Shown here: positions 44,053-63,969 of the stretch, in pieces
Layout of the letters: every line of letters begins with the position of its first letter
Numbering within the stretch: the stretch's first letter is position 1
Source of the DNA: Nitrospirota bacterium
GTDB lineage: Bacteria > Nitrospirota > Thermodesulfovibrionia > Thermodesulfovibrionales > JdFR-88
Length of the DNA stretch: 64,000 nucleotides
Assembly: GCA_021789215.1 (NCBI GenBank)
Contig: JAJYJS010000003.1
Coordinates: 49,828 to 113,827 of the forward strand
Direction: 5' to 3'
Position numbers and translations under genes: made by a program
The notes under the pieces: generated by a model
What the model was told of the DNA's origin: nothing
Seen by the model: the letters and a program-made list of their open reading frames with translations, nothing else
Databases searched by the model: none

Positions 44053-45267
44053 ATGATAACGGTGGAACAGCTTGGCGGAAGGCCCGTATGGGAAGAGTAT
44101 GCCGAGGCGGCCGAGAGGAAGGGTATTGGCCATCCGGACACCATCACGGACAGCATCTGCGAGGCCGTTTCAATCGCGCTCTCAAAAGAATACCTCAGCT
44201 CGGCGGGAAGGATACTGCACTACAACATAGACAAGGGGCTGTTGTCCGCCGGAACGGCCCGGAAGGATTTCCGTGGCGGGAAGGTGCTTAAGCCCATGCG
44301 CCTTTACATAGGCGACAGGGCGACATTCGAGTTCATGGGCAAAAAAATCCCGGTCCGGGAGGTCGCGGCCGGAGCCGCCAGAAAATGGATATCGGAGAAC
44401 CTGCGCTTCGTGGAGCCGGAACGCCACGTGCGCTGCAACGTGGTGCTCGCGCCGGGCTCCGCCCAACTGGCGAAGATATACACGAATGGGTCCGGCGTTC
44501 CGGCGGCAAACGACACCTCAGCCGCAACCGGATACTGGCCGCTTTCCCCCACCGAAGAGATGGTGCTTGCACTCGAAAAATACCTCAATTCAAAGGCCTT
44601 CAAAAACCGCTTCCCCGAAACCGGCGAAGACGTCAAGGTGATGGGCCTGAGGGAGGGCAGGCAGCTTTCCCTTACGGTCGCCATGCCGCTTGTGGACAGG
44701 TTCATACGCACGGAGGCCGAATATTTCGAGAGGAAACAGACGGTGCTTGAGATGATGGAAAGGTTCGTTGCGGCCCGCAACAGGGGCGCTTTCGATGACG
44801 TGCTGCTCTATTTCAACAGCCTCGACGAAAGGGGAAAGGGGCTTGCGGGCATATACCTGAGCGTGCTGGGCACCTCGGCCGAGGACGCCGACAGCGGCCA
44901 GGCAGGGCGCGGCAACAGGGTGAACGGGCTCATAAGCTTCTGCCGCCCCCAGGGGATGGAGGCCGCCGCCGGCAAAAACCCGAAAAGCCACGTGGGGAAG
45001 ATATATAACGTGCTCTCCTATAAGCTGGCCAGGAGGATTTACGAGGAAGTGGAGGGGCTGTCGGAGGCCTGCGTGCTGCTTGTCAGCAGGATAGGGCTTC
45101 CGGTAAACAGTCCGCCATTGGTTTCCGCCAGACTGAGGCTCAAAAAGGGCGTCCGCATCGGCGATGTCTCAGGCCCGGCGAGGGAGATAATCGAGGAAGA
45201 GCTTTCGGCGAAAAAGATTTCGTCCTTCACGCGGGAGCTTGCGCGGGGCAAATACAGCGTGTGCTAA
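44053..45267 (+). CDS. Archaeal-type S-adenosylmethionine synthetase (methionine adenosyltransferase)
   Basis: The protein is collinear with the archaeal MAT family as I remember it (M. jannaschii type): ERKGIGHPD, ANDTS, GEDVKVMGLREG, LGTSAEDADSGQAGRGNRVNGLI, MEAAAGKNPKSHVGKIYN. It lacks the bacterial MetK motifs. Confidence 0.85.
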   Translation: MITVEQLGGRPVWEEYAEAAERKGIGHPDTITDSICEAVSIALSKEYLSSAGRILHYNIDKGLLSAGTARKDFRGGKVLKPMRLYIGDRATFEFMGKKIPVREVAAGAARKWISENLRFVEPERHVRCNVVLAPGSAQLAKIYTNGSGVPAANDTSAATGYWPLSPTEEMVLALEKYLNSKAFKNRFPETGEDVKVMGLREGRQLSLTVAMPLVDRFIRTEAEYFERKQTVLEMMERFVAARNRGAFDDVLLYFNSLDERGKGLAGIYLSVLGTSAEDADSGQAGRGNRVNGLISFCRPQGMEAAAGKNPKSHVGKIYNVLSYKLARRIYEEVEGLSEACVLLVSRIGLPVNSPPLVSARLRLKKGVRIGDVSGPAREIIEEELSAKKISSFTRELARGKYSVC

Positions 45268-45653
45268 TAAACCGGCTGCCGCGAGAGCAGGGCAACAGCC
45301 CTTCTCTGCGCCTTTGTCCAGATAAGGCTTCCGCCAAACGCGAGCGCAAAGACCAGCACCAGTTTCACTATCAGAAGGTCCGTCCTTGAATGCCCCACGG
45401 CCGCCGCCCACTCATAGGAATGGAACATGAGCACCCTGGGTATGCCGCCAATCAGTATCCAGTAGAGGGAAATTCTTGCCAGTCGGGTCGTGTTCGCATG
45501 GAACCGGCTGAAATAAGCGGCCGATTCGGGGGACCAGTCCGCCTCGAAATGCCTTACGGCGGCCCACATCGCCACCCCGCTTGCCGCAAGCAGGGCCGCG
45601 GCGGCGTCATGAAGGAAGTTGCTCGCTATCAGCGCGACGATTAACAAACCCAT
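45264..45653 (-). CDS. Hypothetical 4-TM membrane protein
   Basis: 129-aa ORF with four hydrophobic helices and several conserved-looking His residues. It is convergent with the MAT gene (4-nt overlap). Confidence 0.5.
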   Translation of the reverse strand: MGLLIVALIASNFLHDAAAALLAASGVAMWAAVRHFEADWSPESAAYFSRFHANTTRLARISLYWILIGGIPRVLMFHSYEWAAAVGHSRTDLLIVKLVLVFALAFGGSLIWTKAQRRAVALLSRQPVY

Positions 45654-45747
45654 TTGTAATCTTATTATAAACGAAAAGGGGCCGCACGGGCCTCATTACA
45701 AAATAGGGCCGCATTGCGTGTATAATAAACGGCAGGGCTAAAGAAGA

Positions 45748-46746
45748 ATGTTCAGAAGATCCTCTTTATTTTTCTTTTTTTGCATGATCATTGCGGCCTT
45801 GGCGCTGGTTTCCTGCTCGCCGCCCCCCGTGGAGAAGCCCCCGGACCTCTGCTGGCCTTTCCCTCCGCAAAAACCGAGGATAAAGTTCGTTGACCTCGTA
45901 ATCGGCAGCCAGGACGCCACGGGCATAAGGGAGGGCAAGTTCAGCCGGATATTCTTTGGCGACGAGGGCGACATAAGGTTCTCCAAACCGGCCTTTGTGG
46001 CGTACAAGGACGGGGCAATGTATGTGACCGACATCAGGTCCCTGCACATCTTCGACTTCAAAAGGAAAAAATACATCGCGGCGGGAACGGACGTCCTGAT
46101 AACGCCGACCGGCGTGGCTGCGAATAACGAGGGGCAGGTGTTTGTAGGGGACTCTTCAAGAAAGGTTGTTTATATATTCAGCAGGCATGGCAGGCTGCTG
46201 GCCTCATTCGGAAGGTTCCAGTCCCCGTCGGGGATCGCGGTGGACGAAGCGAGACAGCACCTGATTGTGGCGGACGCAAAGGCGGACGACATCCAGGTCT
46301 TTGATTTCAAGGGCAACCTGCTGTTCAAATTCGGCAAGCGCGGGAAGGAAAAAGGCGAATTCAACATGCCCTACGGGGTGGCTGTGGACTCCAAAGGCAA
46401 TATCTGCGTCGTGGATTCCGGCAATTTCCGGGTCCAGATATTCGACAGCACAGGCAAGTTCATAAGCACGTTCGGCCATGTCGGCATAAACCCCGGCACA
46501 TTCGCCAGGCCCAAGGGTATCGCCCTGGATTCCGAGGGCCATATATACGTAGTCGATTCGGCCTTCGGCAATTTCCAGATATTTGACGAGCAGGGCAGGG
46601 TTTACCTTGTCGTAGGCTCCAACGGGTATGATGCCGGGCAGTTCCAGCTCCCCTTCGGCATCGCCATAAACTCCAGCGACATGATCTTCGTCGTTGACCA
46701 GGTGAACCGCAGGATCCAGGAGTTTCAATACCTCAAAGGGCACTGA
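45748..46746 (+). CDS. NHL-repeat beta-propeller lipoprotein
   Basis: Lipobox LALVS-C. There are five to six repeats of the NHL pattern (e.g. PSGIAVDEARQHLIVADAKADDIQVFD, PYGVAVDSKGNICVVDSGNFRVQIFD, PKGIALDSEGHIYVVDSAFGNFQIFD). A TATAAT lies at 45721-45726 upstream. Confidence 0.8.
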   Translation: MFRRSSLFFFFCMIIAALALVSCSPPPVEKPPDLCWPFPPQKPRIKFVDLVIGSQDATGIREGKFSRIFFGDEGDIRFSKPAFVAYKDGAMYVTDIRSLHIFDFKRKKYIAAGTDVLITPTGVAANNEGQVFVGDSSRKVVYIFSRHGRLLASFGRFQSPSGIAVDEARQHLIVADAKADDIQVFDFKGNLLFKFGKRGKEKGEFNMPYGVAVDSKGNICVVDSGNFRVQIFDSTGKFISTFGHVGINPGTFARPKGIALDSEGHIYVVDSAFGNFQIFDEQGRVYLVVGSNGYDAGQFQLPFGIAINSSDMIFVVDQVNRRIQEFQYLKGH

Positions 46747-46758
46747 AGCCCAAAGACT

Positions 46759-46787
46759 TTGACTTGTCTTGCCTTTATACCTACAAT
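46759..46787 (+). promoter_or_regulatory. Sigma70-type promoter of the tetraheme cytochrome gene
   Basis: TTGACT (46759-46764), a 17-nt spacer and TACAAT (46782-46787). An AAGGAGG RBS lies about 8 nt before the ATG at 46843. Confidence 0.5.
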
Positions 46788-46842
46788 TTGAGTATATTTT
46801 CCTTCCAGTATCAAAAAAAACCGAAAAAGGAGGGTTTTCCGC

Positions 46843-47421
46843 ATGAAAGCCGCAAAAAAGTTTTTTTTGCTCGCCGCTTTTTTCCTCATGATGCCGGTCG
46901 TGGCCTATGGCGCCGGCGCGCATGACGCCCTTAAGTGCACCGGGTGCCACTCGATGCACGACGCAAAGGGCGACGTCATTTTCGCTGTAAAGCCAAATAC
47001 GGGCACCAACCCGGACACCAAACAGCCTTATGAAGGTGTGACATCCCTTTGCCTTGGCTGCCATGAAACATCCGAGCACGGCGGTTTCGGCATCCTGCCC
47101 ATCTCCGCCCACAAGAGCCATCCTTTCGGCGTGGTCCCTAACCCGAGGATAGCCAAGGTGCCAGCCGAGCTGCTCAGGAACGGCAGGCTCGAATGCGTAA
47201 GCTGCCACGAGCCTCACCCGTCCAACAGCAATTACAAATATCTCCGCGTGGACACCAAAAAGCTGGGCATGGAGACCTTCTGCGCCGTCTGCCATCCCGA
47301 CAGGACGGACGCCTCCACAAAGGACGTAAAAATATTCGGCTTCGACAAGGGAGAGCAGGGGCCCGCGCAGGGAGCGGCACCAAAGCCCAAAGCCGCCCCC
47401 AAAGCAAAAACAACCAAATAG
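46843..47421 (+). CDS. Tetraheme cytochrome c with Lys/Pro/Ala-rich C-terminal tail
   Basis: Signal peptide (..VVAYG/AGA) and 4 CXXCH motifs (CTGCH, CLGCH, CVSCH, CAVCH). The C-terminal tail is GPAQGAAPKPKAAPKAKTTK. Confidence 0.85.
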   Translation: MKAAKKFFLLAAFFLMMPVVAYGAGAHDALKCTGCHSMHDAKGDVIFAVKPNTGTNPDTKQPYEGVTSLCLGCHETSEHGGFGILPISAHKSHPFGVVPNPRIAKVPAELLRNGRLECVSCHEPHPSNSNYKYLRVDTKKLGMETFCAVCHPDRTDASTKDVKIFGFDKGEQGPAQGAAPKPKAAPKAKTTK

Positions 47422-47449
47422 CTGATTCAAGAATAAAATATTAAAAAAC

Positions 47450-47481
47450 CCCTTCCCGAATCGGGAAGGGGTTTTTTTTCT
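47450..47481 (+). terminator. Intrinsic terminator after the tetraheme gene
   Basis: CCCCTTCCCGaatCGGGAAGGGG followed by a T9 run. Confidence 0.75.
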
Positions 47482-47583
47482 TTACTGCCCGGGACCGGGC
47501 AACTCCATCCCTCTGGACAGCGTTCAGGAAAGGAATGGAAAAATGCTGGCTGAAATGGTATATAATAGTAGCAATTTTTACTC

Positions 47584-50028
47584 ATGGATAAATTCATGAA
47601 GCACGCTTGCATGGTTGTCCTTGCGGCCGTCCTCCTGCTGGGGGCGGCGGGTATTTCTCGGGCGGAAGACGTAGATTGCCTGAGCTGCCACAAGGACATG
47701 GCCACGGGGAAGGACGTGCACCCCGCCGTATCCATGGGATGCACATCCTGCCACACCGGCGTGGACGCGACCCAGTTCCCGCACAAGTTCCAGGGCGACA
47801 AAGGTCTTTCAGCCGAGCCGCCGGATCTCTGCTTCGGCTGCCATGACAAGTCCAAGTTCACAGGCAAGGACGTTCACGCCCCCGTAAAAATGGGCATGTG
47901 CACGGCCTGCCATAACCCGCACAGGTCTGACAACAGAAAACTCCTTGTCTCGCTTCCACCGGACCTCTGCTTCGGCTGCCACAACAAGGAAAAGCTCACG
48001 GGCAAGCATATGGTGCACCCCCCGGTGGCCCAGGGGATGTGCACAAGCTGCCACAACCCCCATGCCTCCAATAACCCGAAGCTCCTCCTGGCGGAACCCC
48101 CGGACCTCTGCTTCAACTGCCACGACAAGGCGAAATTCAGCAAAAAAGACGTCCATCCGCCTGTTGCGGCGGGTATGTGCACAAGCTGCCACACCCCCCA
48201 TACAAGCGATAATAAGAGATTGCTGCTTGCGGAGCCGCCAAAGCTCTGCTTTACATGCCATGACGAGAAGAATTTTTCCGGCAAGGCCCATCAGCATCCG
48301 CCTGTTGCGGCGGGCATGTGCACCTCCTGCCATAACCCGCATTCAAGCGATAACGATAAGCTCCTGGCCGAGGCACCCCCGGCCCTGTGTTTCAACTGCC
48401 ATGATTCGAGCAAGTTCACCAAGGGCAAGAGCGTCCATCCGCCTGTTGCCGCCGGGATGTGCACAAACTGCCACGAGCCGCACCAGTCCGGACAGGACAA
48501 ACTCCTGAAGGCGGAGCCGCCGGAGCTCTGCTGGAACTGCCACGATAAAAACAGCCTAATGGCTGGCAAATTCCCGCACCCTCCGTTCGAGGCCGGGATG
48601 TGCCTGTCGTGCCACCAGCCGCACCGGTCGGATTCCGGAAAGCTGCTCGTCAAAGAGCCGCCGGAGCTGTGTTACGACTGCCACGACAAGTCCATGATGA
48701 AGGGCAAGGACCTTCACCCGCCCGTTGCCGCCGGGATGTGCACAAGCTGCCACAGCCCCCATGCGGGGAAGGCCCCCAAGGCGCTCCTTGAGGAGCCTCC
48801 GGCCCTCTGCTTTGGCTGCCATGACAAGGCCCAATTCTCGAAAAAGGACGTACATGCTCCCGTTGCCGCCGGGATGTGCACGAAATGCCACTTCCCGCAT
48901 GCGGGGGACTCAGACAAGCTGCTCAGGGCGGAGCCGCCAAAGCTCTGCTTCACCTGCCACGACAAAAACAAGTTTTCGGGCAAAAAGGATATTCACCCCC
49001 CGGTTGAGGCCGGGATGTGCACGACCTGCCATAACCCGCATTCAAGCGATACAAACAGGCTGCTGGCAAGCAATACGCCGGACCTCTGCTTCAATTGCCA
49101 CGACAAGAGCAAATTCACGATCGGCAATGCCGCGGCCAACGGGCCTTCCATTCATCCGCCCGTTGCCGCAGGGCTCTGCACCGGCTGCCACCAGCCGCAC
49201 CAGTCCGATACGGAAAAGCTGCTGAGGGCAGAGCCCCCGGACCTCTGCTTCAGATGCCATGACAAGAACATCATTATGGGCGGCAAGCACAAGCACCCGC
49301 CGGTCGAGGCCGGGATGTGCCTTTCCTGCCATCAGCCGCACAAGTCTGATGTCGCCAGAAAGCTCCTGGTGAAGAACCCTCCGGAGCTTTGTCTGGACTG
49401 CCATGACAAGGCGCTTGTTTCCGGCAAGAAGGACGTGCACCCGCCGGTTGCCGCGGGTCTTTGCACCTCCTGCCATAACCCGCACTCTTCGGCTTATCCC
49501 AAAATGCTGGTGCGGGATGTGCCCGAGCTGTGCTTTAAATGCCATGAAAAGGGCAAATTCACGGACATGAGGAGGATACACGGCCCGGCCAAGATAGGCA
49601 TGTGCCTTTTCTGCCACCAGCCGCACCAGTCGGAAAACAAGGGGCTCCTTCAAAAACCTGTGCCAGCGCTGTGCTTTACCTGCCACAGGCAGTCGCAGTT
49701 CACGCCGAGCCACCCGCATCCGCCGGTGCAGCAGGGCAAGTGCCTTGAGTGCCACGTGAAGCACTCCTCAAGGTATGCCTTCCTGTTGCAGAGGCCTGGA
49801 AACGAGACCTGCCGGAAATGCCACGCCGATATCTTCAACGGCCCCCACGCCGTTATGGTCATCGGCACAGGCCACCCGCTGAGCGGGCCGCGCGATCCCA
49901 GGAGACCGAACAGGCGGTTTGGATGCGCCAGCTGCCATAACCCGCACGGCTCCGAGAGCATGAAGATATTCAGGTACAAGGTCAAAAAAGACCCGTATGA
50001 GCTGTGCATCAACTGCCATCCAAAATAG
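47584..50028 (+). CDS. 33-heme (33 x CXXCH) multiheme cytochrome c composed of tandem doubled-CXXCH modules
   Basis: 814-aa ORF with a signal peptide (..GISRA/ED). I counted 33 CXXCH motifs by hand. There are 14 tandem 46-47-aa units between a 2-heme N-cap and a 3-heme C-cap. A TATAAT-like box at 47560-47565 lies upstream. Confidence 0.9.
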   Translation: MDKFMKHACMVVLAAVLLLGAAGISRAEDVDCLSCHKDMATGKDVHPAVSMGCTSCHTGVDATQFPHKFQGDKGLSAEPPDLCFGCHDKSKFTGKDVHAPVKMGMCTACHNPHRSDNRKLLVSLPPDLCFGCHNKEKLTGKHMVHPPVAQGMCTSCHNPHASNNPKLLLAEPPDLCFNCHDKAKFSKKDVHPPVAAGMCTSCHTPHTSDNKRLLLAEPPKLCFTCHDEKNFSGKAHQHPPVAAGMCTSCHNPHSSDNDKLLAEAPPALCFNCHDSSKFTKGKSVHPPVAAGMCTNCHEPHQSGQDKLLKAEPPELCWNCHDKNSLMAGKFPHPPFEAGMCLSCHQPHRSDSGKLLVKEPPELCYDCHDKSMMKGKDLHPPVAAGMCTSCHSPHAGKAPKALLEEPPALCFGCHDKAQFSKKDVHAPVAAGMCTKCHFPHAGDSDKLLRAEPPKLCFTCHDKNKFSGKKDIHPPVEAGMCTTCHNPHSSDTNRLLASNTPDLCFNCHDKSKFTIGNAAANGPSIHPPVAAGLCTGCHQPHQSDTEKLLRAEPPDLCFRCHDKNIIMGGKHKHPPVEAGMCLSCHQPHKSDVARKLLVKNPPELCLDCHDKALVSGKKDVHPPVAAGLCTSCHNPHSSAYPKMLVRDVPELCFKCHEKGKFTDMRRIHGPAKIGMCLFCHQPHQSENKGLLQKPVPALCFTCHRQSQFTPSHPHPPVQQGKCLECHVKHSSRYAFLLQRPGNETCRKCHADIFNGPHAVMVIGTGHPLSGPRDPRRPNRRFGCASCHNPHGSESMKIFRYKVKKDPYELCINCHPK
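47815..49755 (+). repeat. Intragenic tandem repeat array (about 138-141-nt period, 14 units) encoding the doubled-CXXCH modules
   Basis: The 15-mer ccggacctctgcttc recurs exactly at 47959, 48100, 49078 and 49237, with one mismatch at 47821. It occurs again at 50291 and 50430 in the downstream paralogue. Confidence 0.85.
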
Positions 50029-50071
50029 ACTGGTCCACTTTTCAATGCAATTGCAAAAGGAGTTTTGAGAG

Positions 50072-50794
50072 ATGAGGATTTCAGCTGTTGTGGTCATTTT
50101 CATGACACTCTGCCTTGCGGGGGTCTCCCGCGCGGCGGAGGTCGACTGCGTTTCATGCCACAAGGATTTGACCGAGGGGAAGACCGTCCACCCGGCCGTG
50201 ATGATGGGTTGCGCCGTCTGCCACACAGGCGTGGACGCAACCAAGGTGCCCCACAAGTTCACCGGCAAGCTGGGTCTGGCCGCTGAGCCGCCGGACCTCT
50301 GCTTCAATTGCCATAAGCGCGAGGACTTTATCGCCGCTGACGTCCACCCTCCGGTGAGCATGGGCATGTGCACCTCCTGCCATAACCCCCACAGGTCAGA
50401 CCAGCCGAAACTCCTCATAGCGCCAATACCGGACCTCTGCTTCAACTGCCATGAAAAGCAGGAGTTCACTAAAAAAGACGTCCACGCGCCGGTCAAGGCC
50501 GGCCAATGCCTGAAATGCCATATGCCGCATGTCAGCCCGAATTCCAAGCTGCTCCAGAAAAAGGGCGTCTTCCTGTGCAGGCAATGTCATGCTAACATTG
50601 AGAGGCAGGTCCATGTTGTAGCGGGTTTCTCCTCCGCGGGCCATCCGCTCAAGGGCAAACAGGACCCCCTCAGGAAGGGCAAGCCTTTTGAATGCCTGAG
50701 TTGCCACGTGCCGCATTCCTCGGACTGGGGAAGGCTGTTCAGGTACAAGGCCAACGATGCATTCGGTTTGTGCAACTACTGTCATAAATTTTAG
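50072..50794 (+). CDS. Nonaheme cytochrome c, short paralogue of the 33-heme protein
   Basis: Signal peptide (..GVSRA/AE) and 9 CXXCH motifs. The N-cap and C-cap align with those of the 33-heme protein, with only 2 internal doubled units. An AAGGAG RBS is present, and the gene starts 43 nt after the upstream stop. Confidence 0.9.
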   Translation: MRISAVVVIFMTLCLAGVSRAAEVDCVSCHKDLTEGKTVHPAVMMGCAVCHTGVDATKVPHKFTGKLGLAAEPPDLCFNCHKREDFIAADVHPPVSMGMCTSCHNPHRSDQPKLLIAPIPDLCFNCHEKQEFTKKDVHAPVKAGQCLKCHMPHVSPNSKLLQKKGVFLCRQCHANIERQVHVVAGFSSAGHPLKGKQDPLRKGKPFECLSCHVPHSSDWGRLFRYKANDAFGLCNYCHKF

Positions 50795-50808
50795 TTTTTA
50801 GGGAAGGT

Positions 50809-51330
50809 ATGACCTCACTGAAGGTCTTTTTCTTATCGGCGGCGATGGCTTTTGCCGTGTTTTGCTCCGGGACGGCCATGGCCGCCGGCAAGACGGATTT
50901 CGAGCTTGGCGTGGCGGGCGGGGCAAGCCTGAACGGCATCAAGACCACCCAGTTCATGGTGCTTGGGGCTTGGTCGCGGACCCTGTATCCGGACCTGCTG
51001 CTGAGGGCGGAGCCGACTTTTGAGGTGCTCTCCTCTGATGAAAACACCCTGTATGTGGGCGGGGCATCCCTTGTACTGAGGGCGCTCGCCCCGTACAAGA
51101 CCGTTACGCCGTTCGTTGACATGGGGGCCGGGCTGAACGCCACGTCTTCCAGCCATTTCGATAACCGGAGGCTTGGAGGGGATTTCCTCTTCGACCTGGT
51201 TCTGGGAGGCGGCGTCATCGTCAAGGACTTCAGCATCTCCTACCGGTACAGGCACCTCTCGAACGCTGGCATATTCAAGCTGAACGAGGGCGCGGACTCC
51301 TTCTACATACTCCTGGGCTACAGGCTCTGA
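50809..51330 (+). CDS. Small outer-membrane beta-barrel protein, PagL/acyloxyacyl-hydrolase-like
   Basis: Signal peptide (..GTAMA/AG) and an alternating amphipathic strand pattern. YRYRHLSNAG resembles the His-x-Ser motif of lipid A deacylase PagL-family barrels. The gene starts 14 nt after the 9-heme gene. Confidence 0.6.
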   Translation: MTSLKVFFLSAAMAFAVFCSGTAMAAGKTDFELGVAGGASLNGIKTTQFMVLGAWSRTLYPDLLLRAEPTFEVLSSDENTLYVGGASLVLRALAPYKTVTPFVDMGAGLNATSSSHFDNRRLGGDFLFDLVLGGGVIVKDFSISYRYRHLSNAGIFKLNEGADSFYILLGYRL

Positions 51331-51428
51331 GAACCGCCGCCCGTGGCCAGTCCCTTTAGGTTATAATAATCGAAACAAAACAGTTGAAAATTCATTTATA
51401 AAACATTTCATTGGGAGGTCTTTCCGTA

Positions 51429-52595
51429 ATGGTTAAGGTCGAGATGTCCTCAAGGGTGCGCCATCTTCCGCCCTATCTTTTCGCCGAGATAGACAGGCTC
51501 AAGCAGGAGGAGCTGAAAAAAGGCGTCGACATAATAGACCTGAGCATAGGCGACCCCGATATCCCCACGTCTTCCCATATAGTTGAATCACTGAGGAAGG
51601 CCGCGGGCAACAGCAGAAACCATCGTTATCCGTCCTATGAGGGGCTGCTTTCATTCAGGCAGGCGGTTGCGGACTGGTATAGAAAGCGCTTCGGAGTGGG
51701 GCTTGACGCAGGCTCCGAGGTGCTTTCGCTGATAGGCTCCAAGGAGGGCATAGGGCATATACCGCTTGCCTTCGTGGAGGGCGGGGATGTTGTGCTCTAT
51801 TCTTCTCCGGGTTATCCGGTCTATCCCGTGGGCACCATGTTTGCCGGTGCGGAAGGCCATCCGATGCCGCTTTTTGAGAAAAACGGCTTTCTGCCCGATT
51901 TCAGCGCCATACCCGCGGATATCCTTAAAAGGGCGAAACTGATGTTCATAAACTATCCCAACAACCCGACTTCGGCATCGGCTGGAAAGGATTTTTTCAG
52001 CCAGGTGGTGGAGTTCGCAAACAGGCACAACATAATAGTCTGCCATGACGCGGCCTATTCGGAGATTTACTATGACGGCAAAAGGCCCGCCAGCTTCCTG
52101 GAGGCTCCGGGGGCAAAGGAGGTTGGCATAGAGTTCCACTCCCTTTCAAAGACTTATAACATGACCGGCTGGAGGCTCGGGTTCGCCGTGGGGCACAGAG
52201 ATGTCATTGCCGGGCTTGGGAAGGTGAAGTCCAACCTGGACTCCGGCGTGTTCCAGGCCGTTCAGGAGGCGGGCATCACCGCGCTCGAAACCGGCGACGA
52301 TGTCCTTTCCGGCATCAGGGACACCTACCAGCAGAGGAGGGACGCGCTCTATGAGGGCCTGAAGGGCATAGGCCTCCACGCGATAAAGCCCGAGGCAACA
52401 TTCTATCTCTGGACGAAATGCCCTGAGGGTTTTGACTCCAGGGGGTTTGCAAGGCATATCCTCGAAAAATCCGGCGTGCTGGCCACCCCCGGCGTGGGCT
52501 TTGGCGCCCCCGGCGAGGGCTATATCCGCTTCGCCCTGACGGTAGATGTCAAAAGGATAAAAGAGGCCGTCGAGCGGATAAGAAAAGCCATATGA
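51429..52595 (+). CDS. dapL: LL-diaminopimelate aminotransferase-like class I aminotransferase
   Basis: HLPPYLFAEIDRLK, IIDLSIGDPD, YPNNPT and SLSKTYNMTGWRLG (PLP lysine) motifs. The ATG at 51429 lies behind a GGGAGG RBS. Confidence 0.7.
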   Translation: MVKVEMSSRVRHLPPYLFAEIDRLKQEELKKGVDIIDLSIGDPDIPTSSHIVESLRKAAGNSRNHRYPSYEGLLSFRQAVADWYRKRFGVGLDAGSEVLSLIGSKEGIGHIPLAFVEGGDVVLYSSPGYPVYPVGTMFAGAEGHPMPLFEKNGFLPDFSAIPADILKRAKLMFINYPNNPTSASAGKDFFSQVVEFANRHNIIVCHDAAYSEIYYDGKRPASFLEAPGAKEVGIEFHSLSKTYNMTGWRLGFAVGHRDVIAGLGKVKSNLDSGVFQAVQEAGITALETGDDVLSGIRDTYQQRRDALYEGLKGIGLHAIKPEATFYLWTKCPEGFDSRGFARHILEKSGVLATPGVGFGAPGEGYIRFALTVDVKRIKEAVERIRKAI

Positions 52596-52659
52596 ATCAC
52601 CTGCGGCTAGCCGTAGAGTATCCAAACTATTGAAACCTGTAATATTGATGCCTGTACTT

Positions 52660-52742
52660 GTCATTCCGGGCTTGACCCGGAATCCAGCGGCTTTATTTGC
52701 TTTTTGGGAAAGCCACTGGATACCGGCTTCCGCCGGCATGAC
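52660..52742. repeat. Composite palindromic intergenic element, family B, full copy
   Basis: GTCATTCCGGGcttgaCCCGGAATccagcggctttatttgctttttgggaaagccactggataCCGGCttccGCCGGcATGAC. It has nested hairpins and GTCAT/ATGAC termini. Confidence 0.7.
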
Positions 52743-52812
52743 ATACAAACCGCAAACATCAATGAACCCTGTGGCAAGCTGCAGGGGAATTTTAAGTTAA
52801 ATTTTGTTCTTC

Positions 52813-53271
52813 ATGGCGCTTGCCTCTATCGGGATAGGCTCCAACCTTGGCGGCAAAAAGGCAAACTGCCTTCGCGCGCTCCAGTTGCTCAAGGCAAAGG
52901 GCATCCAGATAAAAGCGGTCTCATCAGCCTGGGACACAAAACCCTGGGGCAGGCAAGAGCAGCCGGACTTCGTCAACATGGCGGCCGTTATCGAAACCGG
53001 CCTCAGCCCTGCCGGGCTTCTTGAAAAACTCCTGGAGACGGAAAACGAGATGGGGCGGGTCAGGACGGAGCGCTGGGGGCCCCGGATAATAGACCTGGAC
53101 CTGCTGCTCTACGGTGATGAGGTAATAGACACTCCCGCGCTCAAGGTCCCCCATCCCCTCATGCAGGAAAGGGAGTTCGTGCTGAGGCCGCTTGCGGAGA
53201 TAGCGCCGGACGCGGTGCATCCGGTGCTAAAAAAAACCATAAGAGAGCTGTTGGAGGCGCTGCGCGACTAG
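52813..53271 (+). CDS. folK: 2-amino-4-hydroxy-6-hydroxymethyldihydropteridine diphosphokinase (HPPK)
   Basis: IGIGSNLG, PDFVNMAA, ERWGPRIIDLDLLLYG, PHPLMQEREFVLRPL motifs. Confidence 0.85.
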   Translation: MALASIGIGSNLGGKKANCLRALQLLKAKGIQIKAVSSAWDTKPWGRQEQPDFVNMAAVIETGLSPAGLLEKLLETENEMGRVRTERWGPRIIDLDLLLYGDEVIDTPALKVPHPLMQEREFVLRPLAEIAPDAVHPVLKKTIRELLEALRD

Positions 53272-55906: not shown

Positions 55907-56905
55907 TTAGAAGGGTTTTATGGTGAAAGTGAACCTGGACACCCCGCCGTGGCCGTCGCTGGCCAGGACGGTTACAGTGGTATCGTCCTTGAGGCCGGGG
56001 GGCGCCTTCCATGTTATCAGCCCCCTGGCGGGGTCGATGGTCATGCCCCTGGGCGCCGACTCAAGCGAATAGGTCAGTGTATCGCCATCCGGGTCGGTGG
56101 CGTTCGCCTGGCCCACGTATTCCGTGCCGTTGAAGGACATCTCGACCCGGGGGCTGAACATCGGCGGCATGTTGGCTATCTTCCTTTCAAGAATGACGGG
56201 CTGGCCGCAGTCCTGCCCGTTGCAGGCGGTTATCCTTACCTTTATCTCATCGTTTCTTTTGACGGGCATGTCCAGCCTGCTTTTGTTTCCCGCAGGCGTC
56301 CCGTTTACCGTCCACTCGTAAACGATTTCGGCCCCGCTGTCAGCCGCGGCGTCGACATAGAGTTTATTGTCGCCGGGCTTGAAGACCTCCGGCATCAGCT
56401 TCACGCTCCTGACCTCGGGGGGCGCGTCCTCGACCGTTACGGGACCGGACTTGACCTCGACGCCGTTTATTTTGGCGACTGCCTGGACAACGTCGCCTTT
56501 TAGTGCGCCGGAGGTGTCAAATTCATTAGGCGTGGAGACCGGCCTTTCAATACCGTTTACATACCAGGTAATGTTGGCAATGCCTGGCGCGTTGAACCCC
56601 TGGCAGATTACGTGCAGTTTGGAGTTCCTGTAAGCCCTCTGTGGGATTATCTCGATGGCGTAGCCGCCGCTCGCGGCCTGGGACGAGTTGGCGGAAGCGG
56701 CGGGAACGGTTTCTTGCTTCTGGACTGCCGTGGCCGCCGTCTGGTCCGTGGCGTTCTCACCGGAACGGAACGCGAAGACCATAAGCACTATGGCGCCCAA
56801 CGCGCACGCCACGGCGAGCGCGGGCAACAAGACCCCTTTTTTCCTCAGCCCCCTTAAGACGGCGGTCAGCGATTTTATTTTATCTGAAAGCTCTTCCATA
56901 TCCAT
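55907..56905 (-). CDS. Membrane-anchored protein with Ig/cadherin-like extracytoplasmic domains
   Basis: N-terminal TM anchor (LLPALAVACALGAIVLMVFAF). The C-terminal domain ATDPDGDTLTYSLESAPRGMTIDPARGLITWKAP matches the 'putative Ig'/dystroglycan-cadherin-like pattern. It is the last gene of the minor-pilin operon. Confidence 0.6.
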   Translation of the reverse strand: MDMEELSDKIKSLTAVLRGLRKKGVLLPALAVACALGAIVLMVFAFRSGENATDQTAATAVQKQETVPAASANSSQAASGGYAIEIIPQRAYRNSKLHVICQGFNAPGIANITWYVNGIERPVSTPNEFDTSGALKGDVVQAVAKINGVEVKSGPVTVEDAPPEVRSVKLMPEVFKPGDNKLYVDAAADSGAEIVYEWTVNGTPAGNKSRLDMPVKRNDEIKVRITACNGQDCGQPVILERKIANMPPMFSPRVEMSFNGTEYVGQANATDPDGDTLTYSLESAPRGMTIDPARGLITWKAPPGLKDDTTVTVLASDGHGGVSRFTFTIKPF

Positions 56906-56931
56906 GAGTCCGGCCTCCCCTCTCTTCAGCC

Positions 56932-57519
56932 TCAGTATTCATAAATCACGGAAAGCCTGGAGCGTTCGGACGGGTTCGTCTGGCTTTGCGAAAGCACCTC
57001 CATCGTATACACGGAAGGCCTGCTTGCAACCGGGACATCCCCGGTGTTCGACGAGACGACGCCGGTCTTGACCAGCCCGGGGACGCCGCCCGTATTCCCG
57101 GCGATGGTGTCCACAACCTTCGTATAAACCCTGTAATTGCCCAGGTCCACGCTCATGTCGTATGTAGCGTTATCTGTTGAATTGATTATCCAGGACTTGC
57201 TGGATGCCCCGCAGCCTGCGGGCCAGTTTGCCGTGGAGTTTACCAGCTTGGCCGCCAGGCAGGCGTTGTTGGGAATGGTCTCGTTCACATTATTAAGCGT
57301 GGCGGCGCCGCCGCTGGCTATCAGCTGGGTTGCCGCCGACACGCCGCCCATCCCGGCCTCCAGGACGTTGGAGTACCGCCCCTGCATTCCGGCGACCTGC
57401 GTGCCGGTGAGGGTCATGTAAATGAGGGCGGACATCATCATCAGGGCCACGGCGGAAAGCAAAAGCACTATGACAAGGGCTATGCCGGACTCGTCTTTTA
57501 TGACTTTCGTGAATTTCAT
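56932..57519 (-). CDS. PilX/GspK-like minor pseudopilin (no Glu5)
   Basis: MKFTKVIKDESG/IALVIVLLLSAVALMMMSALIY: a hydrophobic N-terminal helix without Glu at +5, as in PilX/GspK-type subunits. The start lies 2 nt after the upstream stop. Confidence 0.6.
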   Translation of the reverse strand: MKFTKVIKDESGIALVIVLLLSAVALMMMSALIYMTLTGTQVAGMQGRYSNVLEAGMGGVSAATQLIASGGAATLNNVNETIPNNACLAAKLVNSTANWPAGCGASSKSWIINSTDNATYDMSVDLGNYRVYTKVVDTIAGNTGGVPGLVKTGVVSSNTGDVPVASRPSVYTMEVLSQSQTNPSERSRLSVIYEY

Positions 57520-57521
57520 GC

Positions 57522-58595
57522 CTACCTCAGGTTCAACGGCTTTTCCACAAGCGTATACACCTTCCACCTGTAGTTCAGTTGGTCTGCTGCAAGGGTGTAG
57601 GCATCGCCTGGCGCGCGCCCGTCACCGAACTCCCCGTCGCCCGTAATCGGGTTCGGAGATGTGTAGGAGGGGTCCATCTGGCCCTCCTGGGCCACGATGT
57701 AAACCCGCACCTCCCTCACCTGCTGCCTTATCGTGGCGGCGGAAAAGGCCGATATGTCATTTGACCATGTATCGACGGCCCCGTCGCCGTTGGTGTCAAG
57801 CCCGAATATCACCTGCATGTCGGCCACGCAGTCCAGGAGCGGGTAATAGGTATAACCCCCGTCTGACTGGTTGACGGCCGCTTTTACAAGCTCGCCCGTG
57901 TTGGGGGCGCACCTGTTGGGCACCGCCACGGCCGCGCCCGTTATGAAATAGTCCGCCCTGTTGAAGGGCATCCGCAGGTCGTTGTTTTTCGACACCCCGT
58001 AGACTATGTTCACCTGCGAGCTGTCCGCGGGGGCGAACCCCGACGTGCTGTTGTACATTGTAAAAAAGGCCCCGCCGCTTGCCACCAGCGATGTAGTGTT
58101 ATCGATGGTGGAAAGGACTATGACCCTGTCCGTGGGGTTAAGTTGCTCGCTCGCCACGTCCCACGCCGGTTTTACGTCGCCAACGGAGAGCGTCGCCGAT
58201 TTTCCGGCGGCGTCGTCGTTTACGGCCACGGAGAGGGACTTTATGACAAGGTAATCCGAATTATTGAGCCCCGAAGCCGAGTCGTTCAGGGAAAAGACGG
58301 CTCGGGGCGGATTGGCAGTGGAGTCGTTGGTGCCCACCGGGCCAGTGGCCGCTTCGGCGTAATTCACTCCGGCGGGTATCGCCGCGGGCAGGCCGTATCC
58401 TGCCGCCTGGGTGTCCTTTCTCAGGTACTCAAGCCCTATCACGCCCTCCACGTTGCTTTCGGCCACCCTGCTTTCCTGCTTGAACTGGGTCAGCAGCTTG
58501 GCGAAGATCGTGGTAGTGGCCGTTATCGCTATGAGCGATATGACCATCGTGACCATAAGTTCGATAAGCGTGAAACCGTCTTCCCTTTTTACCAT
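57522..58595 (-). CDS. PilW/GspJ-like type IV minor pilin
   Basis: Prepilin leader MVKREDG/FTLIELMVTMVISLIAI with Glu5. The size (357 aa) fits PilW-like subunits. Confidence 0.7.
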   Translation of the reverse strand: MVKREDGFTLIELMVTMVISLIAITATTTIFAKLLTQFKQESRVAESNVEGVIGLEYLRKDTQAAGYGLPAAIPAGVNYAEAATGPVGTNDSTANPPRAVFSLNDSASGLNNSDYLVIKSLSVAVNDDAAGKSATLSVGDVKPAWDVASEQLNPTDRVIVLSTIDNTTSLVASGGAFFTMYNSTSGFAPADSSQVNIVYGVSKNNDLRMPFNRADYFITGAAVAVPNRCAPNTGELVKAAVNQSDGGYTYYPLLDCVADMQVIFGLDTNGDGAVDTWSNDISAFSAATIRQQVREVRVYIVAQEGQMDPSYTSPNPITGDGEFGDGRAPGDAYTLAADQLNYRWKVYTLVEKPLNLR

Positions 58596-58600
58596 TTCCC

Positions 58601-58990
58601 TTATGATGACGTCCCCGGCCTTCTTATTATCGTCGATACCGCATGCGAGTAGTTCCGCCCCTTCCAGGTCCAAAACACAGTGATTGTCACCTGCTTGTTG
58701 TCCGGGGCGGCATCGAGGTTTACCACGGTGGTGTTCACGGAAAAAGGCACGGTCATGTTCCTGAAGCTCCTGTCCACTACGACGGGGCCTCCGCTCGCCA
58801 CATTATTGAAAAGCGTGTTCCTGGCGTCATTCATGTCCATTGCGCCTATTTTTATGGCCTCGTTGCGGAGCATGTTGCTGACGTTGGTGTCCAGCGACAG
58901 GAGGGATGTCTGCAAAAGGGCCATGAAGACGAAAAGGAACAGGGCCATCGCGATGAGGACCTCCACAAGCGATACGCCTTTCCTGTCCAA
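58601..58990 (-). CDS. PilV/GspI-like type IV minor pilin
   Basis: The inferred TTG start at 58990 gives the leader MDRKG/VSLVEVLIAMALFLF with Glu5. The ORF is open to 59056 but would then overlap the upstream gene. Confidence 0.65.
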   Translation of the reverse strand: MDRKGVSLVEVLIAMALFLFVFMALLQTSLLSLDTNVSNMLRNEAIKIGAMDMNDARNTLFNNVASGGPVVVDRSFRNMTVPFSVNTTVVNLDAAPDNKQVTITVFWTWKGRNYSHAVSTIIRRPGTSS

Positions 58991-58997
58991 CGGCTTT

Positions 58998-59492
58998 CTA
59001 ATTCGGCACACAGTTCGCTCCGTCCCAGGACCCAAGCGATATCCTCGTCGGGGCAAGCACCACGCAGTTCAGCTCGGGAGCGGTCAGTGATTTGAGATGT
59101 ATATAGGTGGCGCCGGACAGGAGCCCCTCGCTGTCGATATCTATCCAGGCCAGGTCGCTTTCCATCGTAAGCTGGTTTGAAAGCGCAACCCTTTTCAGGC
59201 GTGTGTCCGGGAAGCCAGGGGCGTTGAGGGCGTTGTCCCCGTCGGGGGCGGGGGCGTTATCGACAAAAATGTTATATGTATTATTTGCCATCCTTATGAA
59301 ATACATCCTCTTCCCGGTCACGGCCTGTTCCCTCGCCCTCATCAAGTCGGAGTACAGCTGTTTCACCTGAGACTCCGCCCTGTATTTGTCAATCCAGCCG
59401 TTGAAGCTCAGCGCTGAGGCGGCCAGTACGGCTATTATCGCCAGCACGACTACAAGTTCTATGAGGCCCACGCCATCACTGCGCGCCAGCAA
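58998..59492 (-). CDS. FimT/GspH-like type IV minor pilin
   Basis: Leader MLARSDG/VGLIELVVVLAIIAVLA with Glu5. It is 164 aa with a GspH-like body. Confidence 0.65.
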   Translation of the reverse strand: MLARSDGVGLIELVVVLAIIAVLAASALSFNGWIDKYRAESQVKQLYSDLMRAREQAVTGKRMYFIRMANNTYNIFVDNAPAPDGDNALNAPGFPDTRLKRVALSNQLTMESDLAWIDIDSEGLLSGATYIHLKSLTAPELNCVVLAPTRISLGSWDGANCVPN

Positions 59493-59495
59493 CTT

Positions 59496-63605: not shown

Positions 63606-63615
63606 TGCAAATACC

Positions 63616-63969
63616 TCATTGGACCCCCAGATGTTCATATACGATAATGCCGCTCAGGACAGGGCCCCGGAAAAAAAGCTTGACGCCCCTTCCCCTTATC
63701 AGGTGATTTGTCCCTATGGGCCTGCCTTGTTCATCATGGATGGGGACGCCCGCAAACATATAATAATTGCCGTTTACGCGCACGGCCTGCGGGGTGACAT
63801 CCTCTATCGCCCCCACGACCATCGTCACTCTATCCCTGTCTTCCTGGTACTGATACGTCCGGGCCGGGCCTGCGTTCCTCCTGATGCGCGCATAGGCATT
63901 GGGGAATGCAAAGGATAAAATGGCCGCCATACAGGCCAGGACAAAAACCGCTTTGCGGGTCAGCTCCAT
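63616..63969 (-). CDS. Small secreted hypothetical protein (117 aa)
   Basis: Signal peptide (VFVLACMAAILSFAFPNAYA/R) and an AGGAGG upstream of the ATG. It lies directly upstream of pilY1. Confidence 0.45.
   Translation of the reverse strand: MELTRKAVFVLACMAAILSFAFPNAYARIRRNAGPARTYQYQEDRDRVTMVVGAIEDVTPQAVRVNGNYYMFAGVPIHDEQGRPIGTNHLIRGRGVKLFFRGPVLSGIIVYEHLGVQ

Follow-up and report, generated by a model that had tools for sequence, protein, structure and literature searches.

Five consecutive genes on the same strand, at positions 45748-51330 of the analyzed 64-kb stretch of DNA (the window), encode an NHL lipoprotein, three cytochromes with 4, 33, and 9 haem sites (c4, c33, and c9), and a PagL-type barrel, as read from the sequence. 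The host genome is that of a sulfate-reducer-like Nitrospirota. The locus raises the question of whether the five genes form one functional unit, as the first-pass annotation had supposed, and what such a unit would do at the cell envelope. We favor, with moderate confidence, a reading in which two separable things lie side by side, i.e. a four-gene NHL-c4-long-short cassette with a putative role in electron transfer and a PagL gene that belongs to the dapL neighborhood.

Gene content and transcription signals of the locus

The first gene (45748-46746, + strand) encodes a six-bladed beta-propeller lipoprotein of 332 aa (Pfam NHL, E=4e-32; DUF5128 six-bladed propeller). Its sequence contains the lipobox L-V-S-C23 with Ser at position +2, a residue of the outer-membrane type, and the N-terminal motif P37-FPPQKPRI-45, which marks a cytochrome-associated subfamily with PxPPxxPRI. 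Promoter-like sites precede the gene at 45641-45726 (+ strand), namely a -35/-10 pair TTAACA-16-TATTAT at 45641-45668, found in a consensus scan, and the previously annotated TATAAT box at 45721-45726, read directly; both are consensus matches only.

The c4 gene (46843-47421, + strand) encodes a tetrahaem cytochrome of 192 aa with a Sec signal peptide and four CXXCH motifs. H27, H39, H93, H125, and the four CXXCH motifs are invariant in the family alignment, and the Pro/Ala/Lys tail, which ends in ...APKPKAAPKAKTTK in the window, is variable. The gene is framed by a promoter-like site, TTGACT-17-TACAAT (46759-46787, + strand; 10 of 12 consensus positions), and by an intrinsic terminator (47443-47477, + strand), the inverted repeat I2, with a perfect, 100% complementary stem of 16-17 bp followed by a T-run; a promoter and a terminator of its own had been claimed for this gene, and both signals are present.

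A comparison of the c4 family profile with the PDB returned OmcS (6ef8, E=1.6e-5) as the sole match, with all four haem motifs in matching order, and hhalign gave 97.6% with the OmcE-like family A4 across haems 3-4. The ligand order H-D-x-L, CxxCHxxH, CxxCH, HP, CxxCHxxH, CxxCH is common to c4, OmcE, and 9yuq. As the AlphaFold model of c4 is poor (pLDDT 59), the evidence for a likeness to OmcS and OmcE consists of weak sequence and profile matches, in part attributable to the haem motifs. With this proviso, c4 is predicted to be a tetrahaem cytochrome remotely like OmcS/OmcE, with a transcript of its own.

The two following cytochromes also have Sec signal peptides. c33 (47584-50028, + strand; 814 aa) is an MtrA/DmsE-type protein with 33 CXXCH motifs (Paired_CXXCH_1, E=1e-219, 16 copies). 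It contains about 14 units in tandem, each about 47 aa long and with two haem sites (LxAEPPxLCFxCHDK...HPPVAAGMCTSCHNPH), and the DNA repeats have a period of 138-141 nt and 60-80% identity. c9 (50072-50794, + strand; 240 aa, nine CXXCH; Paired_CXXCH_1, E=4e-43) matches the MtrA chain 6r2q_A (E=9e-16) and is a paralogue of c33 that has the same modules at its N and C termini but a smaller number of repeats (blastp, 51% over the full length). The signal peptides of all three cytochromes are plain, a lipobox being absent from each. The CXXCH motifs sum to 46, and neither CX3CH nor CX4CH sites were found.

The fifth gene (50809-51330, + strand) encodes a PagL-family outer-membrane protein of 173 aa (PF09411, E=7e-18), predicted to form an eight-stranded barrel. 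The best fold match of its model is PagL 2erv (TM 0.74-0.88, rmsd 1.9 A), a structure that the sequence matches as well. H149-x-S151 aligns with the catalytic His126/Ser128 of Pseudomonas aeruginosa PagL, and the triad His149/Ser151/Asp163 is conserved in all homologues. The gap between the stop codon of c9 and the start codon of this gene is 14 nt long and contains no terminator. The first-pass annotation had thus located the genes, the 46 haem sites, the HxS motif, and this short gap correctly.

It had also missed neither a porin nor a quinol dehydrogenase: Pfam and NCBIfam scans of the 44 ORFs of the window revealed neither a porin nor a protein of the NapC/NrfH, ImcH, or CbcL type, and both functions are likewise absent from the cassettes of the contigs L010 and L118 described below. 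Elsewhere in the 64 kb, no ORF contains more than one CXXCH motif, and the cassette of the window includes neither a prolyl isomerase nor channel genes. The left flank (44053-45653) consists of an archaeal-type SAM synthetase gene (44053-45267, + strand) and a small membrane ORF (45264-45653, - strand), and the right flank (51411-53271, + strand) of genes for LL-diaminopimelate aminotransferase (dapL, 51411-52595) and HPPK (52804-53271).

Recurrence of the NHL-cytochrome cassette

The cassette is found in some Thermodesulfovibrionia-like Nitrospirota. Its gene order recurs in three other Nitrospirota contigs (L010, L118, and L119), headed in each by an NHL orthologue with 52-57% identity. Complete cassettes are available from the window, L010, and L118 (n=3), a small sample of close relatives. 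The haem numbers are 21, 33, or 45 for the long and 9 or 17 for the short cytochrome; the c33 orthologues have 21 (L118), 45 (L010), and at least 18 haems (L119, gene incomplete). The two-haem units of 47 residues in c33 and c9 vary in number between genomes. Pro/Ala/Lys-rich linkers and tails are present, and the c9 orthologue of L118 (60% identical) is fused to an N-terminal AMIN domain (E=1.7e-15). Domains of the AMIN type are periplasmic and occur, for example, in AmiC and PilQ. The genes dsrMKJOP-dsrC-dsrEFH abut the cassette in L010, L118, and L119; a tblastn search with the DsrMKJOP proteins gave no match in the 64-kb window.

The association was also quantified in a metagenome survey, in which an NHL gene was counted as cytochrome-adjacent when a cytochrome with at least four haems was encoded inside 1 kb. 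This was the case for 17 of the 20 NHL proteins with the N-terminal motif, compared with 8 of 32 motif-less proteins (Fisher p=4e-5) and none of 34 long NHL proteins. The link between NHL propellers and paired-CXXCH polymer cytochromes is therefore real. The PagL HMM had no match in the 105 surveyed cytochrome and NHL loci.

A wider type of cluster was found in metagenomic loci such as L113, with genes for a 16-haem MtrA-like protein, NHL, an OmcE-like tetrahaem protein, a PPIase, an unannotated 611-aa ORF (possibly a barrel), NHL, and an 11-haem protein. The OmcE-like tetrahaem family of these clusters matches OmcE 7tfs (E=8e-8) and 9yuq (E=4e-11). The position after NHL is taken by c4 in the window and by OmcE-like genes in other clusters. 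Orthologues of c4 stand alone, without an NHL or MtrA-like neighbor, in six of the nine contexts examined, so that c4 is perhaps not specific to the cassette; for this gene, too, the idea of a five-gene unit is weakened. Natural head-to-tail fusions of two and three c4 units also occur (P0255, P0251).

The PagL gene and the putative role of the cassette

That all five genes act together, with the barrel anchoring the cytochromes or remodeling lipid A locally, appears improbable. The 14-nt gap without a terminator speaks for it, as does L118, where PagL again follows the short cytochrome (9-nt gap) despite an identity of only 38% to the PagL of the window. Of the three complete cassettes, two (window and L118) thus have PagL 9-14 nt after the short cytochrome, which is above the expectation for random neighbors, and a lineage-specific link may exist. 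However, PagL is kept beside dapL in four cassette-free relatives (L006-L009; 47-55% PagL identity). In three of them (L007-L009) the order is metK-small ORF-PagL-dapL-HPPK, the SAM synthetase/small ORF flank directly abutting PagL, and in L008 PagL overlaps metK. The dapL/HPPK flank lies 3' of PagL in the window and in L007, L008, and L009, and the cassette is followed by it in the window and in L010; in L118 dapL alone is visible downstream because the locus ends there. Moreover, L010 has the cassette and lacks PagL, and the survey loci contain none. Cassette-linked PagLs do not group (47-64% identity of the window PagL to unlinked copies, 38% to the L118 copy), and PagL similarity tracks genome relatedness, not cassette presence. 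Fold and catalytic His/Ser/Asp are unchanged and standard in linked and unlinked copies alike, and a cytochrome cannot fit inside an eight-stranded barrel. The barrel, previously proposed as a component, is thus probably not one; more likely it is an ordinary lipid A deacylase of the dapL neighborhood and a bystander of the cassette. Its gene is probably co-transcribed with the cytochromes merely through its position, as read-through into PagL would arise only because the cassette sits upstream.

For the four-gene cassette, sequence and gene order suggest the following mechanism. The Sec-exported 33- and 9-haem proteins would form a periplasmic haem wire of bridging length, and the outer-membrane-anchored NHL lipoprotein would dock it or help to assemble it on the periplasmic side of the outer membrane. 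c4 may be an abundant periplasmic partner or a polymerizing end piece. Together, these proteins would take up or discharge electrons by connecting redox complexes of the inner membrane with the envelope or surface of the cell; DsrMKJOP, encoded next door in three relatives, is a candidate partner. A route across the outer membrane is not encoded in the cassette; without a porin in the 64 kb, an extracellular role would need a further partner or route.

Two alternatives concern the function of the cassette. It might be purely periplasmic, serving as an electron store (capacitor) or as a bridge from the inner membrane to a periplasmic reductase in a sulfate or sulfur reducer. The plain signal peptides of the cytochromes, the absence of a porin from cassette and window, the AMIN fusion, the Pro/Ala/Lys-rich segments, and the adjacent dsr genes of the relatives would all fit. 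We nevertheless regard it as rather unlikely, as homologous cluster types hold OmcE-like filament cytochromes, large possible-barrel ORFs, and 11-haem proteins, and the +2 residue of the partner lipoprotein NHL is of the outer-membrane type. A tentative place is given to the idea that c4 is the functional center, a miniature OmcS/OmcE-type filament subunit that NHL and MtrA-like proteins assemble or charge, as proposed for the osc cluster. The OmcS and OmcE-like matches, the shared ligand order, the covalent dimers and trimers, the position after NHL, and a strong promoter-like site plus terminator, as for an abundant structural subunit, are compatible with it. Yet most c4 contexts lack NHL or MtrA-like neighbors, prolyl isomerase and channel genes are absent, the predicted structure cannot be relied on, and the matches cover short segments in which haem motifs abound. 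The same gene-level features would also be expected of a PpcA- or STC-type carrier, small and abundant in the periplasm.

Comparison with known systems

The PagL protein shares with P. aeruginosa PagL (PDB 2erv) the Pfam match, the eight-stranded fold, and the catalytic His-x-Ser. In contrast, Glu140 of the triad is replaced by Asp in all Nitrospirota homologues, and the protein is only about 18% identical in sequence to 2erv; deacylase activity is predicted.

c33 and c9 resemble the MtrCAB, MtoAB, and PCC3 conduits in being MtrA/DmsE-type proteins with doubled CXXCH. PCC3 includes long periplasmic versions with 21-27 haems, judged able to span the periplasm (PMC10734462). Unlike these conduits, neither the cassette nor the 64 kb encodes an MtrB-like or large porin or an MtrC/OmcA-type surface cytochrome. 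c4 has weak homology to the N-terminal half of OmcS and resembles OmcE-like proteins at haems 3-4; it is much shorter, having 192 aa compared with 407 aa for OmcS and 232 aa for OmcE.

The combination had been put forward as possibly undescribed, but clusters of NHL and multihaem genes have been reported from Desulfovibrio ferrophilus IS5, as Uet, and as Geobacter osc. In D. ferrophilus, genes for NHL propellers adjoin those for multihaem cytochromes, MtrA-like ones among them, and no porin accompanies them; a scaffold role was proposed for the propellers, and the outer-membrane fraction contained MtrA-like proteins with 12 and 14 haems (PMC5815863). Likened by gene description, its clusters DFE_0448-0451 and DFE_0461-0465 (PMC5815863, PMC9769857) also belong to a sulfate reducer, have an NHL gene adjoining genes for 12-/14-haem MtrA-like periplasmic cytochromes and further cytochromes, and have no reported porin. 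They differ from the locus in phylum and in haem number (33 and 9 here). Their additional cytochromes include the predicted extracellular DFE_450 and DFE_464; the small tetrahaem protein here is OmcS/OmcE-like.

The Uet cluster of Candidatus Tenderia electrophaga and Gallionella (bioRxiv 10.1101/2022.05.06.490989; PMC10734462), matched by the metagenomic locus L113, likewise combines NHL repeat proteins (UetH/I), a tetrahaem protein (UetA), and doubled-CXXCH multihaem cytochromes in one conserved block. The osc (omcS-companion) cluster of G. sulfurreducens, as cited in PMC13194489, comprises a filament-type cytochrome, the beta-propeller-like OscD, and periplasmic cytochromes; counterparts of its OscH prolyl isomerase and its channel-like OscEFG genes are missing here. 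In many described NHL-multihaem clusters there are also genes for a prolyl isomerase and for a large barrel, both absent here. The cassette is a compact, porin-less relative of these NHL-containing multihaem clusters, a kind of cluster that, in other bacteria, has already been tied to the exchange of electrons with solids.

Gene content of the locus

ORF listing, translation and Pfam/NCBIfam scans confirmed that the locus consists of five consecutive genes on the same strand with 46 haem sites in three cytochromes, as described in the first-pass annotation. The first gene (45748-46746, +) encodes a 332 aa protein with NHL repeats (E=4e-32), whose signal peptide ends in a lipobox (LVSC23), in keeping with its earlier designation as a lipoprotein. 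It is followed by the genes for the tetrahaem cytochrome c4 (46843-47421, +; 192 aa, 4 CXXCH motifs), which carries the tail APKPKAAPKAKTTK, and for two larger cytochromes, c33 (47584-50028, +; 814 aa, 33 CXXCH) and c9 (50072-50794, +; 240 aa, 9 CXXCH), both with Sec signal peptides and without a lipobox. These four genes are referred to here as the cassette. The fifth gene (50809-51330, +; 173 aa) encodes the small barrel. The annotated expression signals are also all present, i.e. a TATAAT box 22 nt 5′ of the NHL start, a promoter-like site (10/12) and a perfect 16-17 bp hairpin terminator for the c4 gene, and a terminator-free gap of 14 nt between c9 and the barrel gene.

Apart from c4, c33 and c9, the 64 kb contain no ORF with two or more CXXCH motifs. 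The claim that no porin or quinol dehydrogenase lies nearby held for the 44 window ORFs scanned with Pfam/NCBIfam, among which neither a porin nor a multihaem quinol dehydrogenase was found. The scanned ORFs include housekeeping genes, ResB/CcsA, sensor kinases, and a type IV pilus cluster; dsrMKJOP and other dsr genes are absent from the window.

The System II cytochrome c biogenesis genes for CcsA and ResB (35402-38052, -) lie about 8 kb upstream and are part of a conserved backbone that also occurs in the cassette-free relatives L007 and L008. An archaeal-type SAM synthetase gene (44053-45267, +; PF01941, NF003363) is shared by every related Nitrospirota locus that was examined. A type IV pilus minor-pilin cluster (55907-63969, -) begins about 4.6 kb 3′ of the locus, past dapL, HPPK, and gyrA; it encodes pilins with N-methylation motifs, a PilW-like protein, an Ig-domain protein, and a protein of 1380 aa that matches PilY1 weakly and below the threshold. 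A 408-aa antisense ORF across the NHL and c4 genes (46204-47430, -) is almost certainly not a real gene, given how many conserved homologues the NHL and c4 genes have. The DNA of the NHL linker "EKPPDLCW" (45822-45853) shares 66-81% identity over 32 nt with the start of the c33/c9 repeats, "AEPPDLCF" (e.g. 48081-48112). The Cys of this linker is not kept in the NHL orthologues of the cassette-bearing loci L010 and L118, and the likeness may be due to chance.

NHL propeller, cassette and barrel gene in other genomes

An alignment of four NHL orthologues was used as the query for a metagenome scan, which returned 80 loci. For NHL ORFs of up to 500 aa, 25 of 52 have a cytochrome with at least four haems within 1 kb, and 20 of these cytochromes are MtrA-like; the corresponding value for long NHL proteins (>500 aa) is 0 of 34. 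The cytochrome-adjacent NHL genes are set apart from the others by the N-terminal motif P-x-P-P-x2-3-[PA]-R-[IV] (PFPPQKPRI in the window). Cytochrome adjacency was found for 17 of the 20 motif-bearing genes, compared with 8 of the 32 motif-less genes (Fisher p=4e-5), and the three exceptions with the motif come from short contigs or contig ends. The PxPPxxPRI motif can thus serve as a simple marker for a cytochrome-associated NHL subfamily. A listing of NHL orthologues with this motif, at 45% identity or more, contained more than 100 proteins. An NHL gene adjoins an MtrA-like multihaem gene in the window as well as in six other loci (L010, L118, L119, L014, L034, and L039).

The most common architecture (e.g. 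L113, L063, and L073) comprises genes for a 16-haem MtrA-like cytochrome, an NHL protein, a tetrahaem cytochrome of about 310 aa, a SurA-like prolyl isomerase, an ORF of 611-689 aa, a second NHL protein, and an 11-haem cytochrome. The 611-689 aa ORFs have no Pfam matches; the copy in L113 ends with a C-terminal Phe, and this aromatic terminus suggests that these proteins are possibly barrels.

The cassette itself recurs in three loci. A c9 scan of the genome collection located L010 (Nitrospirae bacterium JdFR-86), with the order dsrJOP...dsrEFH, NHL (55% identity), c4 (58%), a 45-haem and a 17-haem cytochrome, a cNMP/TPR gene (-), dapL, and HPPK. L118 and L119 were located via NHL orthologues. 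In L118, dsrMKJOP-dsrC...dsrEFH are followed by NHL, c4, a 21-haem cytochrome, a 461-aa protein, and PagL, the latter two separated by 9 nt, and then by an efflux pump, other genes, and dapL. L119 begins in the same way, and the contig end falls inside a cytochrome with at least 18 haems. The order NHL-c4-long-short is therefore conserved, with haem numbers that vary (21/33/45 and 9/17), so that the length of the MtrA-type wire differs among relatives from 21 to 45 haems. Neither the L010 nor the L118 cassette contains a porin. The position upstream of dapL, which the cassette occupies in both L010 and L118, favours an old location with later losses. Terminal repeats that would mark a mobile insertion were looked for and not found: no direct or inverted repeats lie around 45654-50808, and the base composition is unremarkable.

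Genes for dsrMKJOP, dsrC, ferredoxin, tusA, and dsrEFH were observed directly beside the cassette in all three loci (L010:144-4528, L118:1406-9825, and L119:1700-9813). DsrMKJOP, a quinone-interacting membrane complex whose DsrJ subunit is a periplasmic trihaem protein, is therefore a candidate inner-membrane partner.

The barrel is predicted to be a PagL-type lipid A deacylase. It scores 65.5 bits against PF09411 (Pfam; cut-off 23, E=7e-18) and matches the PagL structure 2erv with phmmer (E=2.4e-5). The AlphaFold model (pLDDT 83.5) has eight strands, and its best Foldseek matches are 2erv_A/B (TM 0.74-0.88, rmsd 1.9 Å). The catalytic triad of the P. aeruginosa enzyme is reported in the PagL structure paper to be His126, Ser128, and Glu140. 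His149 and Ser151 of the barrel align with the former two and Asp163 with Glu140; the Asp is a conservative replacement shared by the whole family, and His-x-Ser is kept in all copies.

The first-pass annotation had regarded this small barrel as a member of the unit, which is probably not the case. Four Nitrospirota contigs with the closest barrel homologues (L006-L009; 47-55% identity) retain the backbone of the window, with flanking proteins that are 55-79% identical. The full backbone, ccsA-resB-cupin-ADH-ADH-small ORF-(regulator)-SAM synthetase-small membrane ORF(-)-PagL-dapL-HPPK, is complete in L007 and mostly present in L008 and L009, and L006 has only the ADH, cupin, SAM synthetase, and PagL genes. 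None of the four contigs has matches to NHL, c4, c33, or c9. PagL is therefore a resident of the neighbourhood, and the NHL-plus-cytochrome block is its variable part. In addition, the window PagL is 47-64% identical to unlinked copies, but only 38% to the L118 copy, so that PagL goes with the genome rather than with the cassette.

Of the three complete cassettes, two have PagL and one, L010, does not. The opposite extreme, that PagL never accompanies the cassette, is ruled out by the order NHL-c4-21-haem-9-haem-PagL in L118. A PagL profile built from nine homologues had no match in the 80 loci of the NHL scan or in 25 c9-related loci. Thus, of the co-occurrence proposed earlier, the link between NHL protein and cytochromes stood (17 of 20 motif-bearing genes; L010, L118, and L119), but that with PagL did not (none in 105 loci, and cassette-free in four genomes). 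The barrel probably adjoins the propeller-cytochrome unit by synteny, following the dapL neighbourhood. This calls for caution, as the seeming partner is a conserved neighbour and provides no evidence for a new outer-membrane mechanism.

The cytochromes

Paired_CXXCH_1 domains (Pfam) were found in 16 copies in c33 (E=1e-219) and in four copies in c9, and c9 matches the MtrA chain 6r2q_A (E=9e-16). With TIGR03508 (MtrA/DmsE decahaem), c9 reaches 88 bits at a cut-off of 192, and c33 exceeds the cut-off only through the summing of nine repeated partial matches; with 33 and 9 haems, neither is a full-length ten-haem protein of this family. The two are paralogues with N- and C-terminal modules in common (51% identity across c9), and c33 has about 12 extra 47-aa two-haem units. 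The 141-nt DNA repeat units of c33 are only 60-80% identical, so that a recent expansion was rejected and the array is regarded as old; Tandem Repeats Finder detected no array. The ten haems of MtrA reportedly span roughly 8 nm in the MtrCAB structure, and scaling from this value suggests about 25 nm for 33 haems, roughly the width of the periplasm. Periplasmic cytochromes with 21-27 haems have been judged able to span the periplasm by length (PMC10734462). The c9 scan also revealed, in other phyla, a 1559-aa Acidobacteriota ORF with 61 CXXCH and an Elusimicrobia ORF with 36 CXXCH (L020:11187-15866; L011:7259-9568), and 33 haems are therefore not exceptional.

The c9 orthologue in L118 (13345-14730; 461 aa overall) consists of an N-terminal AMIN domain (E=1.7e-15), a repetitive Pro/Ala/Lys/Glu linker, APPKAETPAPAKVE, and a 9-haem module that is 60% identical to c9. 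AMIN domains are periplasmic, with cell-wall association in AmiC and PilQ. The sequence of the L118 protein suggests a cell-wall-tethered periplasmic cytochrome, and the fusion points to a periplasmic location of c33/c9-type cytochromes; the window c9 has no AMIN extension.

The c4 protein represents a conserved tetrahaem family in at least two phyla, with 50-63% identity between Nitrospirota and an Anaeromyxobacter. Four CXXCH motifs and His27, His39, His93, and His125 are invariant, which suffices for four bis-His haems; the Pro/Ala/Lys tail varies, and some members lack it. An exhaustive library search with the c4 profile gave 412 representatives at E<=1e-3. Against the PDB, the only match was OmcS (weak, E=1.6e-5), whose motifs 1-4 align with the four motifs of c4 in order, CxGCHxMH being common to both. 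The ~310-aa tetrahaem family of the L113-type clusters matches OmcE 7tfs (E=8e-8) and 9yuq (E=4e-11), and hhalign aligned c4 with this family (97.6% over 44 columns, haems 3-4); the link to OmcE is thus indirect, a direct match of c4 to 7tfs not being found. By inspection, c4, OmcE, and 9yuq have the order H-D-x-L, CxxCHxxH, CxxCH, HP, CxxCHxxH, CxxCH in common. Taken together, these comparisons suggest a remote likeness of the c4 family to OmcS/OmcE. The AlphaFold2 model of c4 (44-sequence alignment) was too poor for interpretation (pLDDT 59, pTM 0.42).

Head-to-tail c4 units occur in two natural proteins, P0255 (339 aa; two units, 8 CXXCH) and P0251 (471 aa; three units, 12 CXXCH), which would fit with units stacking end to end. 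Other long matches to the profile, such as P0302 (24 haems), lack the NYKYLR signature and were rejected as true tandems; they probably reflect shared doubled-CXXCH ancestry. Orthologues of c4 stand alone in six other contexts with unrelated neighbourhoods, including GCA_014874185.1, an assembly that also has PagL but no cassette, and this counts against a dedicated cassette role for c4. The protein may form filaments as a subunit or serve as an abundant carrier in the periplasm. In L039:3905-8411 (PMT_2 family) and, in Anaeromyxobacter, L004:8428-11318 (GtrA_DPMS_TM), small OmcE-like/c4-like tetrahaem genes have as partners large genes for glycosyltransferase-like membrane proteins, a hint that some of these cytochromes may be glycosylated.

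Interpretation and known systems

The best reading of the locus is a compact porin-less variant of known NHL-associated multihaem clusters, to which PagL is adjacent by synteny. A periplasmic haem wire would be docked at the outer membrane by the NHL lipoprotein and would exchange electrons with inner-membrane complexes, with DsrMKJOP as the obvious candidate in the relatives; c4 might act as a carrier or as a polymerising end piece. A more far-reaching view is that some Thermodesulfovibrionia-like Nitrospirota have a minimal porin-less electron kit for the whole envelope, composed of the outer-membrane-anchored NHL protein, an MtrA-type wire of 21-45 haems, a polymerising mini OmcS/OmcE-like tetrahaem cytochrome, and a co-transcribed PagL that thins lipid A locally so that the assembly reaches the surface. 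We consider this view very improbable; if true, it would mean an outer-membrane route without a porin sheath. In the preferred reading as a variant cluster, the locus represents a reduced version, with only four genes, in uncultured Nitrospirota that resemble sulfate reducers, and the question of how porin-less haem wires get outside is now posed on a defined minimal gene set. NHL-multihaem clusters are coming to be seen as a widespread alternative to classic porin-cytochrome conduits, or as a complement to them, with component mechanisms that are so far putative.

With respect to individual components, c33 and c9 resemble MtrA/DmsE in their doubled-CXXCH domains and MtrA similarity, but the adjacent MtrB-type porin of MtrAB-type conduits is missing from the cassette and the 64-kb window. 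The barrel agrees with PagL (2erv) in Pfam score, 8-strand fold, and alignment of the His/Ser/acidic residues.

The combination had been considered possibly undescribed, but NHL-cytochrome clusters are already known from Desulfovibrio ferrophilus and as the Uet and osc clusters. Shen et al. 2025 are said to describe OscD as propeller-like and OscH as a prolyl isomerase. For the Geobacter osc cluster around omcS, roles in nanowire folding (OscH), secretion (OscEFG), and morphology (OscD) have been proposed (PMC13194489, citing Shen et al. 2025). The Uet cluster of Tenderia and Gallionella comprises a tetrahaem UetA, isomerase UetB, barrel UetC, NHL proteins UetH/I, and 11-haem UetJ (PMC10734462; bioRxiv 10.1101/2022.05.06.490989), a gene set that corresponds to the L113-type metagenomic clusters. 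The window cassette has the NHL beta-propeller protein in common with Uet and osc. In contrast, the prolyl isomerase (UetB/OscH) is missing, with no Rotamase/SurA domain in the cassette or window and one in L113, and so is the large barrel or channel (UetC/OscEFG), the sole barrel of the window being the 8-stranded PagL. In D. ferrophilus IS5, NHL propellers adjoin MtrA-like 12-/14-haem cytochromes, with no porin reported. The authors proposed that these propellers stabilise a cytochrome complex of the outer membrane through which electrons are taken up from solids (PMC5815863, PMC9769857). Judged by this published description, the cassette resembles this type in having an NHL gene that adjoins an MtrA-like cytochrome gene, an arrangement that is conserved across genomes.
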